A stretch of DNA of 64,000 bases from Rhina ancylostomus (taxonomy: Eukaryota). The position numbers and the translations under genes are program-made. Shown here one piece after another: positions 30,000 through 61,324 of this stretch. The number at the start of each line of letters is the position of its first letter. Position 1 is the stretch's first letter. The DNA lies in NCBI GenBank assembly GCA_030265395.1, contig JARFYF010000094.1, positions 91,232,636 through 91,296,635 on the forward strand, read 5' to 3'. Below the pieces are notes generated by a model. That model saw only the letters and a list, made by a program, of their open reading frames with translations, did not search any database and was not told the DNA's origin.

Positions 30000-30827
30000 C
30001 ATAGAACAGCACAGAACAGTGCAACACAGGAACAGGCCCTTCGGCCCGTGCTGCCTGTGCAGACCACGATGTCAAGTTAAACTAATCCTTTCTGCCTGTA
30101 CATGACACATGTCCCTCAATTCCCTCATACTCACGTACCTCAAACACNNNNNNNNNNCACCACAATAGTATTTCTTTTGCCACCACCCCGGCAGCATGTT
30201 ACAGGCACCAACTGTTCCGCACATCTCCTTTCAACTTTTCCCCCTCACCTTAAAGCTTATGCCCTCCAGAATTTGACAACCTCCTTCATAGTCCACTGTA
30301 CCATCAATTTCAGTACCACTCTCAAACTTAATAATTAAGTCACCTACATTCTTATCCAAATTATTAATATATATGACAAACAACAAAGGACCCTGCACTG
30401 ATTCCTGTGGCACACCACTGGGCACAGGCCTCCAATTTGAAAAACATCTGTCCACTAGCACCCTGTCTCCTTCCACCAAGTCAATTTTGTATCCTGTTGA
30501 CCAGCTCACACTGGATCCATATGATCTAACCTTCCAAATCAGCCTACCATGAGGGATCTTGTCAAAGTCCTTGCTAAAGCCCATGTAGATAATGCCTATC
30601 ATCCTGCTCTCTTCAATCCTCTTGGTCACCTCTTTAAAAAACCTCAATTAACTTTGTGAGGCACGATTTCCCAAGCACAAAGCCATGCTGACTATCCCTG
30701 ATCAGTCCTTGCCTTTCCCAATGCAAATAAATCCCATCCCTCAGAATCCCTTGAAATAACTTTCCCACCATCGATGCAAGGCTCAACGACCTGCAGTTTC
30801 CTGGCTTAACCCTGCTGCTCTTCTTAA
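30000..30827 (-). mobile_element. CR1 LINE with internal deletion
   Basis: RT motifs (SQHGFVLGKSCLTKLIE, DFDKIPHGRL, SGVPQESVQGPLLFVIYINNLD) joined directly to the terminal FKVRGK segment and tail. Confidence 0.9.
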
Positions 30828-35561: not shown

Positions 35562-35771
<210 letters not shown>

Positions 35772-40029: not shown

Positions 40030-40080
40030 CCTTTCCAGCGTGATTTCTTCATATTCATAGTCTGTATCAGTACCATTGAC
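40030..40080 (-). CDS. dlg1: dlg1 exon leading into PDZ1 (51 bp)
   Basis: VNGTDTDYEYEEITLER. Acceptor TTTTGCAG, donor GTAAGA. Confidence 0.96.
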
Positions 40081-43934: not shown

Positions 43935-44708
43935 CATATAGAACATAGAACAGTACAACACAGTACGGACCCTTCAGCCCACGATGTTGTGCAGACTTGT
44001 ATAAACCTTATTCCCATTCAATCTATCCCCCTCTCTACTACATCTCCCATAAGCCTCTATTTTTCTTTCGTCCATGTGCCTATCTAATAGTTTCTTAAAT
44101 AACCCTATCGTATTGGTCCCTACCGCTAACCCCAGCAGTGCATTCCAGTCACCCATCACTCTCTGTGTAATAAACCTACCTCGGACATCTCCCCTCAACT
44201 TTCCTCCACGCACCTTAAACAGGTGACCTCTAATATTGGCCAGTGCCACCCAGGGGAAATGGTGCTGGCTGTCCACTCTGTCTCTGCCTCTCATAATCTT
44301 ATGTACCTCCATCAAGTCTCCTCTCATCCTTTGTTGCTCCAAAGAGAAAAGCCCTAACTCACTCAACTTCTCCTCTTAAGACATGTTCTCCAACCCCGGT
44401 ATCATTCTCATAAATCTCCTCTGCACCCCCTCCAAAGCTTCCACATCCTTCCGATGACATGGTGACAAGAACTGAACACAATATTCCAAGTGTGGTCTAA
44501 CCAGAGTCTTACACAGCTGCAACATTACCTCTCGGCTCTTGAACTCAATCCGCCGGCTAACGAAGGCCAGCATACCATATGCCTTCTTAACAGCCCTATC
44601 CACCTGTGAGGTAACTTTGAGGGATCTATGAACCTGGACCCCAAGATCTCCCTGTTCCTCCACACTGCTAAGAATCCTACCATTAACCTCTACCTTCAAG
44701 TTCATTCT
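43935..44708 (-). mobile_element. Young CR1 LINE 3' end
   Basis: ORFs with LVRPHLEYCVQF, LGLFSLEQQRMRGDL and RVMGDWNAL; catagaaca tail repeats. Confidence 0.93.
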
Positions 44709-44989
44709 TNNNNNNNNNNNNNNNNNNNNNNNNNNNNNNNNNNNNNNNNNNNNNNNNNNNNNNNNNNNNNNNNNNNNNNNNNNNNNNNNNNNNNNNNNNN
44801 NNNNNNNNNTCACTGGCGCTGTAATAGCGTTACGTTAACCACTGCACTACCATGCCTGTCACTTCAAGGGAGATCAAGTGAAACAAATGTGCAATTCGTA
44901 TTGGTTTATTATTGCCACTTGTACTGAGGTACAGTGAAAAACTGGTCTTGTGTACTGTTATGCTAACTGCTACACTTCTGTACAATGGA

Positions 44990-45173: not shown

Positions 45174-47277
45174 AACATAGAACATATAACAGTACAGCAC
45201 AGTATGGGCCCATGATAGTGTACCGACCTATATTAACCTTATCCGCATTCAATCTATCCCACTCTCTACTTCACCTCCCATAACCTATTTTTCTTTCGTC
45301 CATATGCCTATCTAATAGTATCTTAAATGACCATATCATATCAGCTCCTACCACCCACCCCGGCAATGCATTCCAGGAACCCACCACTCTCTGTGTAAAA
45401 AAAACCTACCTCTGACATCTCCCCTGAACTCTCCTCCATGACCTCTAGTATTGGCTATTACCACCCTGGGGAAAAGTTGCTGGCTGTCCACTCTGTCTAT
45501 GCCTCTCATAATCTTATATTCTTCTATCAAGTCCCCTCATCTTCCGTCGCTCCAAAGAGAACATCCCTAACTCACTCAACCCCTCCTCATAAGACATGCT
45601 CTCCAACCCAGGTAACATCCTTGTAAATCTCCTCTGCACCCTCTCCAAAGCTTCCACGTCCTTCCTACAATGTAGTGACCAGAACTGAACACAATATTCC
45701 AAGTGCGGTCTTACCAGAGTCTTATGAAGCTGCAACATTACCTCTCGGCTCTTGAACTTAATCCCCCAGCTAATGAACGCCAGCACACCATACGCTTTCT
45801 TAACCACCCTATCCACTTGTGTGGCAACTTTGATGGATCTATGTACTTAGACCCCAAGATCTCTGTTCCCACACACTGCTAAGAATCCTGCCATGAACCA
45901 TGTACTCTGCCTTCAAGTTCATTCTTCCAAAGTTTATCACTTCACACTTCTCTGGATTGAACTCCATTTCTGGCACTTCTCCGCCCAGCTCTGCATCCTG
46001 TCTAAGTCCTGTTGCAACCTACGACAACCACCAACCTCCGTGTCATTTGCAAACTTATCAACCCTTCCTTCAACTTCCTCATCCAAATCATTTATAAAAA
46101 TCACAAAGATCAGGGGTCCCAGAACAGATCCTTGTGGAACACCGCTAGTCACCAACCTCCAGGTCGAATACTCCCCTTCTACAACCATCCTCTGCCTTCT
46201 GTGGGCACCAATTTCAAATCAGCCAATTTTCCATGGATCCCATACCTCATAATTTTCTGAATGAGCCTACCAAGGGGAACCTTATCAAATGCCTTGCTAA
46301 AATCAATAAATACCACATCCACTGCACTACCTTCATCAATTTGTCTGGTCACTTCCTCAAAAAAACTCTATTAGACTCATGAGGCATGACCTGCCCTTCA
46401 CTATCCCTATTAAGACTATGCTTCTCCAAATGCTCATAAATCCTATCCCTAAGAATTCTCTCCAATAGTTTGCCCACCACTCACTGGTCTATAATTCCCA
46501 GGAATATCCAGGCCAGGGAGGACCACTAATGCTCCAGCAATCTCTTCCCTTGCTTACCATAGTAATATATCCCTTGGGTATATCCTTTCTGACCCCAGGG
46601 ATTTATCTATCCTAATGTTTGTTAGTAGCTCCAACACTGCTTCTTTCTTAACCTTGACACACTCCAAAACATTTGCCTGTTCTGCACTAACCTCACATTT
46701 GTGGGTGGTAAGTCCCTCTCCCTGGTGAACACTGAAGCAAAATATTCATTTAGGACCTCCCCACCTCCTTTGCTACCAGACACATTTTTTCCCCTTTATC
46801 CTTGAGCGGTTCTACCCTCACCCTAGTCATCCTCTTGTTCTTCACATATATGTACAACGCCTTAGTGTTTTCCTTAACCCTACTTGCCTTTGCCTTCTCA
46901 CGTCCCCTTCTAGCTCTCCTAAGTCCCTTCTTAAGCTCCTTCCTGGCTATCTTATAACTCTCAAGAGCCCTATCTGATTTCTGCTTCCTAAACCTTAAAT
47001 ATGCTTCCTTCTTCCTCTTGACTAAACCTTCCACCTCTCTTGTTAACCATGGTTCCTTCACCCTACCATCCTTTCTTTGTCTCAACAGGACAAAGCTATC
47101 CAGAACCCCATGCAAGTGGTCCCTAAACAACCTCCACATTTCTGTGGTGCATTTGCCAGAGAACACCTGTTCCCAGTTTACACTCCCAAGTTCTTATCTA
47201 ATACCATCGTAATTTGCCCTCCCCCACTTAAATACTTCCCCATAATGTCGGCTCCTATCTTTGTCCATGGCTATGTT
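45174..47277 (-). mobile_element. 5'-truncated CR1 LINE (~2.1 kb) with frameshifted RT
   Basis: [44 protein letters not shown] and KEPWLTREVEGLVKRKKEAY segments in broken frames. Confidence 0.95.
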
Positions 47278-48232: not shown

Positions 48233-48286
48233 GTAAGGCTGAGACTCCAAACTATCTGTATTTACCACAACAGGAGGTGGATTAGC
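48233..48286 (-). CDS. dlg1: dlg1 exon I1B (54 bp)
   Basis: ANPPPVVVNTDSLESQPY versus DLG1 ANPPPVLVNTDSLETPTY. Acceptor TTTTTTAAAG, donor GTAAGT, phase 0-0. Confidence 0.96.
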
Positions 48287-52270: not shown

Positions 52271-52369
52271 CTGTTGACTGTCAGACGAGAAGACACTGGC
52301 TTCAGCGGGGACTGGCATAACAGGGATCACAGGGATTACAGGAGTAGAGGGAGGAGTAGCCTCTATCTG
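52271..52369 (-). CDS. dlg1: dlg1 proline-rich alternative exon I1A (99 bp)
   Basis: QIEATPPSTPVIPVIPVMPVPAEASVFSSDSQQ resembles mammalian DLG1 I1A (PTEAVLPSPPTVPVIPVLPVPAENTVILPTIPQ). Acceptor TTTAG|CAG, donor CAG|GTTTTG, phase 0-0. Confidence 0.9.
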
Positions 52370-57699: not shown

Positions 57700-57925
57700 A
57701 GTTTTTCTTTACACAGAAAGTGATGGGTGCCTGGAATGTGCTGCCAGACGTGGTAGTGGAGGCAAATATGATAAAGGTGTTTAGAAGGCACTTAGATAGG
57801 CACATCAGTGTGCTGAGAATGGGGGGGATATGGACATCGTGTAGACAGAAGGGATTCGTTCAGTTAGGCGTTTAATTAGTTCGGCACAATATCATGGGCC
57901 AAAGGGCCTGTTCCTGTGGTCTATA
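57700..57925 (+). mobile_element. CR1 3' end
   Basis: ttacacagaaagtgatgggtgcctggaatgtgctgcc...gggccaaagggcctgttcctgtg. Confidence 0.8.
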
Positions 57926-58176
57926 TAAGCTTTGTGCATTAATAGTGTGTGCTAAATAATAAATAAATGTAGAATTCAGCACATCTTTCAGATATCTGAA
58001 ATTAGACTCTAATGGGAACTGAGTAACTCCATTATGAGCTACAGCGGTGGAATATCTTAATGAGAACAGGGGCCACTGTCATAATTGTTATTCCATGGTT
58101 TGCACTTTGATTTACACACTAAAACTGCACTGGCATTACCACCATAAGATCAGCACACAGTTCCACAGATACTGAC

Positions 58177-58497
58177 CTTATCAAAGGAACCAGTTGACCA
58201 AGAGCTGTCCGACCACCAGCCGCTGGTTGCTTTCACTTTAGCAGTACTTTTTGTTGGGCTTTTCTTAACACTGTCACGCAGGTTTGTGAACTTGCCCCTA
58301 TGTTTAGTCGAGGACACAGGCAGAGTTGCAGAGGTATAGTACTTGTGTGTAGTAAAATGCTGCTGCTGAGGCTCCAGACATTGTTGACGCGGATTCACTT
58401 GCAACCTTGGGTTACTTGAAAAATGCATTAATCTCCCCAGTTCACAACCTTCTGGCACACCACAAGAGTATGCATGTTTGTAACAATAAGTTGTCAT
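58177..58497 (-). CDS. dlg1: Putative alternative first coding exon of dlg1 (SAP102/PSD-93-like N-terminus, 107 aa)
   Basis: ATG at 58497 with A at -3 (GCAAAATGA). 321 nt open frame MTTYCYKHAYSCGVPEGCELGRL...YTSATLP...LRDSVKKSPTKSTAKVKATSGWWSDSSWSTGSFDK ending at donor AAG|GTCAGT (phase 0, compatible with downstream exons). Motifs resemble recalled DLG3 and DLG2 N-termini. Confidence 0.78.
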
Positions 58498-58504
58498 TTT
58501 GCAG

Positions 58505-58720
58505 CTCAGAAAGAGAAAGAAATTATTTTGTAATAAGAAAACAAAAATACAAATTGCTAGGTCAGGCAGAAAGCAAACGGGAAAAAAAATCAGTACTGCA
58601 ATGTTGGAGCATTTATCACAGAAGAGCTCCGCTAGGAAAGGCAGAGAAGCAGAATCTGATTCTAGCCAGTAGCGCTCTCCAATTAATGAGCACCAATGGG
58701 CACTGCACATGACAGCCCTC
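58505..58720 (-). promoter_or_regulatory. Candidate internal promoter/5'UTR region of the alternative first exon
   Basis: Two CCAAT motifs (58679-58683, 58693-58697) and an E-box CACATG (58706-58711) about 180-210 bp upstream of the ATG, in sequence with no recognisable repeats. Confidence 0.35.
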
Positions 58721-61324
58721 TTTTCCCAGGCACGAATAATCAATGCACAGCACAGATTTGTCATATGGGTGACAAAGTTCACCTTACAAACACACTCAAC
58801 ACATTCTAACGTACAATCACCCTCAAGAACCTTCCACTTTTTGATATCTCCCTTCCTTCCCCAAAGGAGGGAAAACTTAACGTTTAAAGTGCTGTGGCTA
58901 TAGAATTGGTCACTTTTGAACCTGGCAATGTACCTTATGGCCTTTCAAAATTGAAAGTTCTATGATTATAAATCAGATTTTAAAGATTTCAGTTATGGGA
59001 ATACATTCTACTTGGTTGTCATAAATATTCCATAAATCAAAGAAACAAGACTAACAGAGTCCTTTTCAATCGCATTTTTCCCCCAACACTACAGTTAACA
59101 CTTAATAGTTAATAACCAACACATCAACCACCACTTCCATCTCACCGTGACCAGCCAATGCAATCAAAGAAAAAAACTACATAAAATTTCTGTATAATAA
59201 AATGTCACATACTAAGAAGCACAGAACTTCATTATTGTTAATCTTATGTATCTAATACAAAATTATAGTTGTTGAAGTCTCTTGAAGAGTAAAATACAGA
59301 AATTTGTTAAGATTGTATGGGAAATACACAGGAAAAAGTTTTCAAACAAAACACTAAAGGTATACATCATGGAGCTTAAATCATAGGCAGTCAGCTGGCA
59401 AGCACAGGCAGAGATGAATAAAAACTGACAGCAATCCAGACTAATCACCATGGAGCTGCCACAGCTCATCATCTTTGGTGTACAGATGTAACCAGAGGCT
59501 ACAAAAGCCACACACTAATGCAAAAGTCAAAGCAGTCTGAGCCAGGAGGAGGATGAGTGCATTAAAAGCCAGAATGATGGTGCAGGCTCTGCCAGCAGCT
59601 TTCAGGATTTTCCACTGCATGTGCAAGTGAAAGCAGAAGTTCTCCTGTAGAACAACACTGGATTCAATAAAGCAATATAATACCAGTTCAGTTTACTTTG
59701 TTATAAGATCATACTTGGACCAAAGAGGCTGAACATGTTTGTATCCAAAGCAGCATTCCAGCCTCAAATGATCCTTTCAATTTTTAGATCTTTAAGACAC
59801 TCAACGTTTCAGTCATAAAACAATGGCAGAAAGATGATTTTAAAAGTGGCAATAACAGATGGTCATAAATTAAGACAACACTACACAGTCTGACCTGCCA
59901 ACAATTTCCCCATTTACAATTTATTCACTTGATGTAGTTTCATAATTTACGTCAAAGTTCCTAGTGCAAAATAGAAGTGAAATCTATTGAAACCCATGTT
60001 CTTGAAGGGCTATTCAACTAATACCACAAAAATCTCAGCTTCATTGCAATAAAAACAACTAAAGCCATTACAGCTTCAGAATTAATCTTTGAAACCCAGT
60101 GATGTGCTTTACTCATATTAACTCTGATAAAATATCATTGCTGTACCGAAAGATTACTTCATTTCTGGCATTTGAGAGATTCCGACAATTTCATATAAAT
60201 GCAGCAATTGGCATAGGGTTGAGTTCAGATTTTAAGAGCATCATTTCCTGTTGTTAACAATGCAGAAATATTAAACTCGTTGTGTCTCCTTTTAAGATCT
60301 TCCTTGGTTAAGATTTGTGGAATTACCTTCCTGAATATAAATTGTCAAATGGAGAACTAAAACCAAAGTGCAGAAAACAAGCATGGAGATTAATGACCAA
60401 GAATCTTGATTGAATTGGGCTCTAGCATTGTGAAAGAATCATAAATTGAAAAGCAGGGGCCTCACAGATTTATTGATGATAACACTTTTCATAGGAACTA
60501 ACAACTTGTACCTACGTGACAAGATAACAAAGACGCAAGGTACAGATGGCACATCTTGTAATCAAAAAAACAAGCACAGGCCCTCAGTGGCTAATCAGGT
60601 AATGATTATACATCAATAACAGTGGACAATGACAATAAAGAGTGGGAGATATGATCAATCAGCACAAGCATTTGGAATTGCAGCCAGAAGCAGCTAGAGG
60701 GAAGAGAATATGTAGTCCATAGACTTAAGAATGTCAATCTAGGCTGAACACTTTGTGAGTAACGCTTTGTATACAACTATCACCTGAGTTGAGGATCTTT
60801 GAGGTAATAACAGCTTAAGTGATTTGAAAGTAAAACTGTACAAGTGATTTTATCATTGTTCAAATGATTTATAATAGTGGTAAGAGTATTAATAGTATCT
60901 GTAGAAGGTATAATACATAATCTCGATAAGCTATAAAGTTAAAGCTCCTTGTCATCTGATTTGGTTTAAATTGAAAAGTTGAACCCATATTAGGGTCAGA
61001 AAGGTTATGAAAAAACTCATGTCCGACAGATTCATAGCTTCATTCTGTATCAGAACACAAGCTGCACAACGAGAGCAGGGTTCCCAGTCTGGCTGGACAT
61101 GCCAGAGATTTCATCACCATGATCTCATTTATACAATCAAATGTTACTGCCATGGATCATCAATACATCTATCCTCTCCATGTCTTCCAACGTGAATGGA
61201 GAAATAAATAACTTCTTAACAAAATGATTTGATTGATCTCAATTAATAGCCTGTTTATAACTGTCCTCACCCATTCCCCAAAGTTGGTGCAAACTAATAG
61301 CTAAAAGCAAGCAAAGTAAGGAAG

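Follow-up and report, generated by a model that had tools for sequence, protein, structure and literature searches.

The dlg1 locus and its 107-codon exon

The window analysed here, a stretch of 64,000 nucleotides of the Rhina ancylostomus genome, holds part of a DLG gene on its minus strand. The host gene is DLG1, judged by its body exons, which are closest to named DLG1, and by the presence of an I1A exon. The exons of the window are as follows.

58177..58497, minus strand: coding part of the likely delta/SAP102-type alternative first exon of dlg1; 107 codons, ATG at 58497, phase-0 donor after 58177
52271..52369, minus strand: dlg1 exon I1A, proline-rich; tandem acceptor 52369/52366 (NAGNAG) that adds or omits one Gln
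48233..48286, minus strand: dlg1 exon I1B, 54 nt; commonest acceptor in annotated orthologues
40030..40080, minus strand: PDZ1 entry exon, 51 nt; phase-0 acceptor at 40080
35562..35687, minus strand: PDZ1 coding exon
near 31839-31666, 29515-29366, 21454-21302 and 12146-12000, minus strand: further dlg1 PDZ1/PDZ2/linker exons

Two of these exons we take to be I1A and I1B. The I1A, PDZ1-entry and PDZ1/2 exons are 98-100% identical to named stingray DLG1.

Translation of the minus strand from 58497 to 58177 gave 107 residues without a stop, and the exon ends in a phase-0 GT donor (AAG/GTCAGT, the slash marking the exon end). Both features had been described in an earlier sequence-only reading of this DNA, and all of the motifs that it quoted are present in the translation in the order that it gave. 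Its description of the ATG as lying in good context holds for position -3, which is A, but position +4 is A rather than G, so that the context is adequate and short of ideal. Downstream, phase-0 acceptors lie at 52369/52366 (I1A), 48286 (I1B) and 40080 (PDZ1 entry). The proposed in-frame splicing to any of the three therefore fits by phase, although direct joining to the PDZ1 entry exon is rare: of 83 long models of orthologues, 50 continue into I1B, 27 into I1A, 3 into the PDZ1 entry exon and 3 differently. Both forms of the tandem I1A acceptor were found after the 107-codon exon in shark models. The window contains 11 ATG-started frames of at least 107 codons, so frame length alone is not beyond chance; that the exon is real is indicated by conservation that exceeds chance.

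Decayed reverse-transcriptase fragments, presumably LINE-like from the text of their ORFs, are scattered through introns of the window (43974-44834, 45514-47193, 30231-30647 and 57700-57970), and a high-copy repeat adjoins the exon at 58177..58497 on its downstream side.

Orthologues in non-mammalian jawed vertebrates

A search among longer proteins matched the 107-residue exon in 29 of 175 candidates. Shark and chimaera proteins were 83-88% identical (E about 1e-51 to 1e-54), and turtle, birds and teleosts were also represented. Using a profile of 13 orthologues, we matched 68 of 8000 scored candidates, and 49 matches at E <=0.001 were obtained among 1.84 billion cluster representatives, mainly unnamed exon-sized ORFs. 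Named matches were DLG1 or DLG1-like models of sharks, chimaera, paddlefish, sturgeon, many teleosts, Anolis, turtle and two birds, and zebrafish models of DLG1 carry the orthologous exon as well. The matches of the exon protein and profile searches included no named mammal; because amphibians, gar and coelacanth likewise went unnamed, the lack of a mammal weighs little. Five teleost matches labelled 'DLG4-like' were considered as cases of the exon in DLG4 and rejected, since all of them scored higher against ray dlg1 than against dlg4 exons.

RefSeq and UniRef DLG1 isoforms of many non-mammalian jawed vertebrates begin at the same Met as the ray exon, and most orthologues begin at an MTT-type Met. 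The N-termini of isoforms XP_072897470.1, XP_038672350.1, XP_007896298.1 and XP_073808586.1 are orthologous to the ray exon, and the annotated stingray isoform is 93% identical to it. An isoform with the 107-codon start is already present in automatic annotation (RefSeq, UniRef), as an unnamed 'isoform X' whose name carries neither the DLG2/DLG3 homology nor a function. Automatic gene models usually rest on RNA-seq. The exon had been presented as one kept in this DLG1; it is not peculiar to the ray, having orthologues across non-mammalian jawed vertebrates.

In the DNA of run X3, the exon differs by at least 7 substitutions; among those listed, the 6 codons affected comprise 3 silent and 3 replacement changes, too few to show selection by themselves. 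All 6 of the indels listed for this run fall outside the exon. Frame-breaking changes in relatives, which the earlier reading had singled out as a check, are thus not seen in the exon among the run X3 indels listed.

Homologous exons in dlg2 and dlg3 of the same genome

A search of the genome with the PDZ1 exon located three other DLG loci, on contigs C112, C7 and C70. The first is dlg3, its exon being 98% identical to shark DLG3 N-termini; C7 and C70 we take to be dlg2 and dlg4 from their exon sequences, and also from mouse Dlg2 exon sizes and elimination. We ran the DLG1 profile over 5465 ORFs from 29 loci of the same genome. Leaving aside the exon itself, the top match was the exon of dlg3 (E 2.6e-5). 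The dlg2 exon was found as two pieces, its 3' half ranking next (E 0.002) and the other piece reaching E 0.94. An unrelated locus (L005), itself selected with the same query, reached E 0.0035, near the value of the dlg2 half. Profile-profile comparison (hhalign) of the DLG1 and DLG3 families gave a probability of 92-94% with E of 1e-7 to 6e-7. In nine composition-preserving shuffle tests, with the DLG3 comparison made in both directions, 0 of 2000 shuffles attained the real score in any. For the dlg2 exon, 22-28 bits stood against shuffle maxima of 7-9, and an alignment score of 96 against a shuffle maximum of 63. The dlg1 exon and DLG3 are 30% identical pairwise, with gaps (E 5e-5). A single-protein search of the whole genome returned the exon itself and 8 matches at E >3, neither paralogue among them, and profile searches of public collections gave no named DLG2 or DLG3 among their matches.

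The three exons also agree in form. The dlg3 exon has 107 codons and the dlg2 exon has 105 in relatives (runs X2 and X3); all three end in phase 0 and hold the same slot in gene order. They have in common a Cys/His start, an S-x-TLP-like motif, an RD..KS motif and WW near the end, and the dlg1 and dlg2 copies are identical in their first four residues. Because sequence, length, splice phase and gene position agree, we conclude that the dlg1 exon is homologous to those of dlg2 and dlg3. The claim of an alignment to DLG2 and DLG3 N-termini is thereby borne out by exons of the same genome. Exon pair scores were 127 for dlg2-dlg3, 96 for dlg1-dlg2 and 72 for dlg1-dlg3; that dlg2 and dlg3 form the closest pair fits the first DLG split, DLG1/4 versus DLG2/3, given in passages of PMC4685586.

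In this assembly, the dlg2 exon (L023:4314-4612, minus strand) carries a 16-nt frame-breaking deletion relative to runs X2 and X3, which could reflect allelic variation, a loss in the species or a fault of the assembly. Contigs of run X1 stop on either side of the deletion site. No homologous exon was found in dlg4 with the DLG1 profile in the 100 kb upstream of PDZ1, nor with three profiles in the nearer 60 kb (best 3.9 bits); the relevant dlg4 interval contains 2676 N in 23572 bases.

Collinear architecture of the four dlg loci

The ray dlg1 exons run in the order L27, alpha-type, KYRYQD, WYAKK, MNYIFG, 107-codon exon, I1A, I1B and PDZ1. The L27 exon lies about 218 kb, and the separate alpha-type exon about 100 kb, upstream of the 107-codon exon, which is itself downstream of the KYRYQD exon. 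The dlg2 order is collinear with this: KYRYQD-type, WYAKK, the homologous exon, an ANPPP-type exon and the PDZ1 entry. L27, alpha, KYRYQD and WYAKK exons are present in dlg4. The dlg3 locus is collinear too, with upstream L27 and linker exons intact, and no WYAKK exon was found in it. Features identified in these loci outside the window are listed here.

L061:2549-2680, L058 near 5340 and the L053/L052 boundary (G000:C112 71.61-71.70 Mb), minus strand: L27 and linker exons of dlg3
L013:1574-1627, minus strand: I1B-like exon of dlg3, 54 nt, 18 residues
L044:3298-3388, minus strand: WYAKK first-exon candidate of dlg1, short and basic
L026 near 8974, minus strand: WYAKK first-exon candidate of dlg2, short and basic
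L033 near 7393, plus strand: WYAKK first-exon candidate of dlg4, short and basic
L041:7700-7942, minus strand: MNYIFG first-exon candidate of dlg1, 81 codons, phase-0 donor
L049:6623-6721, minus strand: Cys-rich alpha-type first exon of dlg1, 33 codons
L038:1146-1244, plus strand: Cys-rich alpha-type first exon of dlg4, 33 codons

The dlg3 L27 exon precedes the SAP102-type start by 146 kb on the same strand and scores above the Pfam cut-off (E 6e-15); it is followed by two further open exons with canonical splice sites and compatible phases. With these exons upstream, the SAP102 start would be an internal alternative exon in the ray, as in dlg1, and ray dlg3 would encode a predicted L27-bearing SAP102. 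Published accounts differ here: DLG3 is described without L27 in a passage of PMC7962242, and a figure legend in PMC6365469 gives it one. The 54-nt exon of dlg3 matches the size of the SAP102 I1 insert given in part of PMC10620527.

In mouse Dlg2 the order is exon 5, epsilon, delta, gamma, exon 6 (54 bp) and exon 7 (51 bp), and delta, an alternative first exon amplified from brain and joined to exon 6, has a Cys at residue 35 (sections of PMC6389146). The homologous exon of ray dlg2 likewise has Cys35. We therefore read the ray dlg2 exon as delta, a name given by position and Cys35 and not by aligning the mouse sequence, which makes the dlg1 exon a 'delta-type' DLG1 start. By position, the WYAKK exon is a candidate counterpart of PSD-93epsilon, and we found no WYAKK-type start for DLG1 or DLG4 in the literature examined. 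The MNYIFG exon is 54% identical to the N-terminus of a sturgeon model and had no counterpart found in the paralogous dlg loci. The alpha-type exons of dlg1 and dlg4 are 94% and 76% identical, respectively, to the start of a catfish model.

Upstream region and first-exon use

The frame of the exon stays open upstream of the ATG, a feature absent from the sequence-only reading, and spans 264 codons from stop to stop. Three features were distinguished in this region.

58498..58944, minus strand: upstream continuation of the open frame; in-frame ATGs at 58764 and 58710
58679..58712, minus strand: conserved upstream DNA element; contains a pair of CCAAT boxes in inverted orientation (ATTGG), at -200 and -186 relative to the ATG
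58562..58612, minus strand: out-of-frame upstream ORF of 16 codons, terminating before the main ATG

The open frame at 58498..58944 is probably promoter or 5' UTR and not coding. In run X3 a 1-nt insertion at 58581 breaks it, and in the cyprinid model P0030 the conserved upstream stretch switches reading frame midway; together these observations favour a DNA element. The stretch at 58679..58712 is visible in shark, chimaera and cyprinid protein models and shows no change among the run X3 differences listed; we infer that it is likely to act as a proximal promoter. Six AG sites preceded by pyrimidines lie in 58944-58400, of which one, a weak GAG at 58626, is in frame with phase-0 upstream donors; splicing from such donors into the strong acceptors at 58631, 58556 and 58504 would not keep the frame. 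DLG1 models of other species start at the orthologue of exon 58177..58497. Judged by these automatic models and the upstream splice sites, the 107-codon exon is a probable first exon, which may be transcribed from a putative promoter of its own. The 8-mer ATTGGTGC occurs upstream of the dlg1, dlg2 and dlg3 exons and not upstream of six other first exons checked; because random triples share some 8-mer in 364 of 5000 cases (57 of 5000 under a filter chosen afterwards), we regard this sharing as a hint only.

Origin of the exon and rival explanations

Our preferred reading, in which we have good confidence, is that the dlg1 exon is homologous to the DLG3/SAP102 first exon and to the dlg2 exon in the PSD-93delta slot, and is likely to be an alternative first exon inherited from a single pre-duplication Dlg. 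The proposal that an ancestral first exon predates the vertebrate DLG duplications thus stands as to homology and collinear slot, and as to pre-duplication origin it is likely. Transcription would begin at an internal promoter, located at the CCAAT-box element some 200 nt upstream, so that the L27, alpha and other upstream starts are left out of the transcript; the exon would then splice to I1B or I1A and on to PDZ1-3/SH3/GK. The predicted product is a DLG1 that lacks both the L27 domain and the alpha-type palmitoylation exon, with a disordered, basic arm of 107 residues in front. Going beyond this, we lean somewhat towards a pre-duplication Dlg with nested promoters (L27, alpha, epsilon and delta), of which the paralogues lost different ones. 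The SAP102 N-terminus would then be the surviving delta start, and DLG1 would retain a SAP102-like isoform outside mammals.

Alternatively, dlg1 might have acquired a homologous exon from dlg2 or dlg3 through early transfer or gene conversion, in the interval between the duplications and the divergence of jawed vertebrates. Such an event would account for the failure to find a copy in dlg4, the published sister of dlg1, and for the identical first four residues of the dlg1 and dlg2 copies, and none of the searches gave a named copy from a jawless vertebrate or an invertebrate. However, the dlg2 and dlg3 copies resemble each other more than the dlg1 copy resembles either of them, and the dlg4 interval is itself interrupted by N. 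Other first exons are also shared collinearly (the alpha type by dlg1 and dlg4, the WYAKK type by dlg1, dlg2 and dlg4), which makes inheritance and loss the simplest account; we consider transfer improbable. Less probable again is a coding start further upstream, at ATG 58764 or 58710, giving a protein 71-89 residues longer, or a segment that is internal to longer isoforms. Bamboo shark and chimaera models do have an upstream extension aligning at 66%, the frame is open to 58944 with pyrimidine-rich AG sites before the ATG, and the carp model P0111 has the exon behind an L27 region. Yet the extension is disrupted by the 1-nt insertion in run X3, its conserved stretch shifts frame midway in P0030 as a DNA element would, the strong acceptors are out of frame, and most orthologues begin at the MTT-type Met.

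It is very improbable that the exon is conserved by descent but out of use in Rhina ancylostomus. Exons of this type can decay, as the 16-nt deletion in the dlg2 counterpart of this assembly illustrates, but the ATG, frame, donor and upstream element of the dlg1 exon are all intact and its identity to the annotated stingray isoform is high. The idea that the likeness to DLG2 and DLG3 N-termini is convergent or compositional, arising from disordered segments rich in Ser, Thr and Lys, draws on the identity of about 30% with gaps and on the lack of a named paralogue in large database searches that used the DLG1 exon alone. It is largely refuted and the least probable of these alternatives: shuffles that preserve composition never attained the real scores, and three motifs in the same order, lengths of 107, 105 and 107 codons, donor phase and gene slot are shared.

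The N-terminal arm

The most conserved part of the predicted arm lies towards its C-terminal end.

58234..58299, minus strand: invariant basic core, residues 67-88; S-P-x-K site at Ser80

Among 13 sequences, 19 of the 22 core positions are invariant and one more is nearly so. The first half of the core is predicted to be amphipathic (hydrophobic moment up to 0.51). LRDSV and S-P-x-K were each found in 111 of 116 matches, all retrieved via the core itself, with two misses resulting from a 450-residue cut. Cyclin-dependent kinases, Cdk5 among them, have S-P-x-K as their consensus; the dlg3 copy has no Ser-Pro at this core position. The arm has a net charge of +9 and is predicted to be disordered (AlphaFold mean pLDDT 54.6; no helix of 4 or more residues). 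No Pfam family, L27 included, passes for the 107-residue exon, the ESM Atlas gave no usable match for it, and the exon profile had 0 matches among PDB sequences. As a tentative suggestion, the invariant core may be an amphipathic basic motif that docks on an acidic membrane or partner, with a proline-directed kinase switch at S-P-x-K. Such a switch would yield a mobile scaffold without a lipid anchor, like SAP102.

In the first 20 residues, the ray dlg1 copy has 3 Cys and 1 His, with Cys12 the sole invariant Cys among the 13 sequences. This region is without Cys in 26 of 89 DLG1 segments, whereas four Cys are present in 47 of 47 DLG3 N-termini, and the dlg1 exon lacks the SAP102-type cluster of four Cys plus His. 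The N-terminal cysteines of SAP102 are described, in part of PMC10620527, which cites El-Husseini 2000 for the zinc, as zinc-binding and not palmitoylated, and accompany high spine mobility. SAP102 keeps four N-terminal Cys; DLG1 copies keep 0-5, conserving the basic core with S-P-x-K instead. In sharks and rays the N-terminal Cys/His may bind zinc, but this is not the conserved function. The label of an L27-less, SAP102-like SAP97 is therefore apt for ancestry and for the lack of a Pfam L27, but the zinc-type Cys/His motif is only partly kept.

Relation to known DLG N-termini

The dlg1 exon shares with DLG3/SAP102 its length of 107 codons, the Cys/His start, S-x-TLP, RDS..KS..K, GWW near the end, the phase-0 donor and the slot before an ANPPP-type exon. 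The SAP102 N-terminus is termed unique among MAGUKs in a passage of PMC10620527. With PSD-93delta the link runs through the ray dlg2 exon, which is homologous to the dlg1 exon at the same slot and keeps LRD..SP; DLG2 has no I1A acceptor option in the stretch examined, whereas dlg1 has I1A. SAP97alpha and SAP97beta come from the same gene, with the same downstream PDZ body and the same logic of alternative N-termini. The 107-codon start differs from them in having neither L27 nor the alpha exon and in skipping the KYRYQD linker exon; SAP97alpha is a short Cys-pair exon joined to the KYRYQD exon, and the 107-codon exon is not of that type. In passages of PMC6365469 and PMC7962242, the alpha and beta forms alone are given for SAP97, and DLG2 first exons are treated without DLG1 counterparts in passages of PMC5518101. 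We found no description of the DLG1 107-codon start or its homology in open-access full text, subscription journals lying outside this coverage. The exon is apparently an additional N-terminus of SAP102/PSD-93delta type that is modelled in databases and undiscussed.

DLG1 would thus have a third, SAP102-type start from sharks to birds, where the papers cited give SAP97 two N-termini. The gain is evolutionary and annotational and adds no new pathway, and the locus offers a concrete case of paralogues dividing an ancestral promoter set after genome duplication. If this reading is true, the 'unique' N-terminus of SAP102 is a delta start that survived when the gene lost the L27 half upstream of it, a half still kept in the ray. 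In fish, reptiles and birds, DLG1 would in turn still produce a SAP102-like isoform that is kinase-switched and not palmitoylated; in mammals this isoform would have been either lost or overlooked. Knockouts of dlg1 aimed at the 5' exons in fish or chicken would spare the delta-type isoform. Zebrafish models carry the exon, so direct testing there is possible. In the teleost DLG1 copies P0117, P0123, P0146, P0148, P0134 and P0141, the middle of the exon is expanded by long Gln- or His-rich repeats of up to about 300 residues, and the core is fixed.
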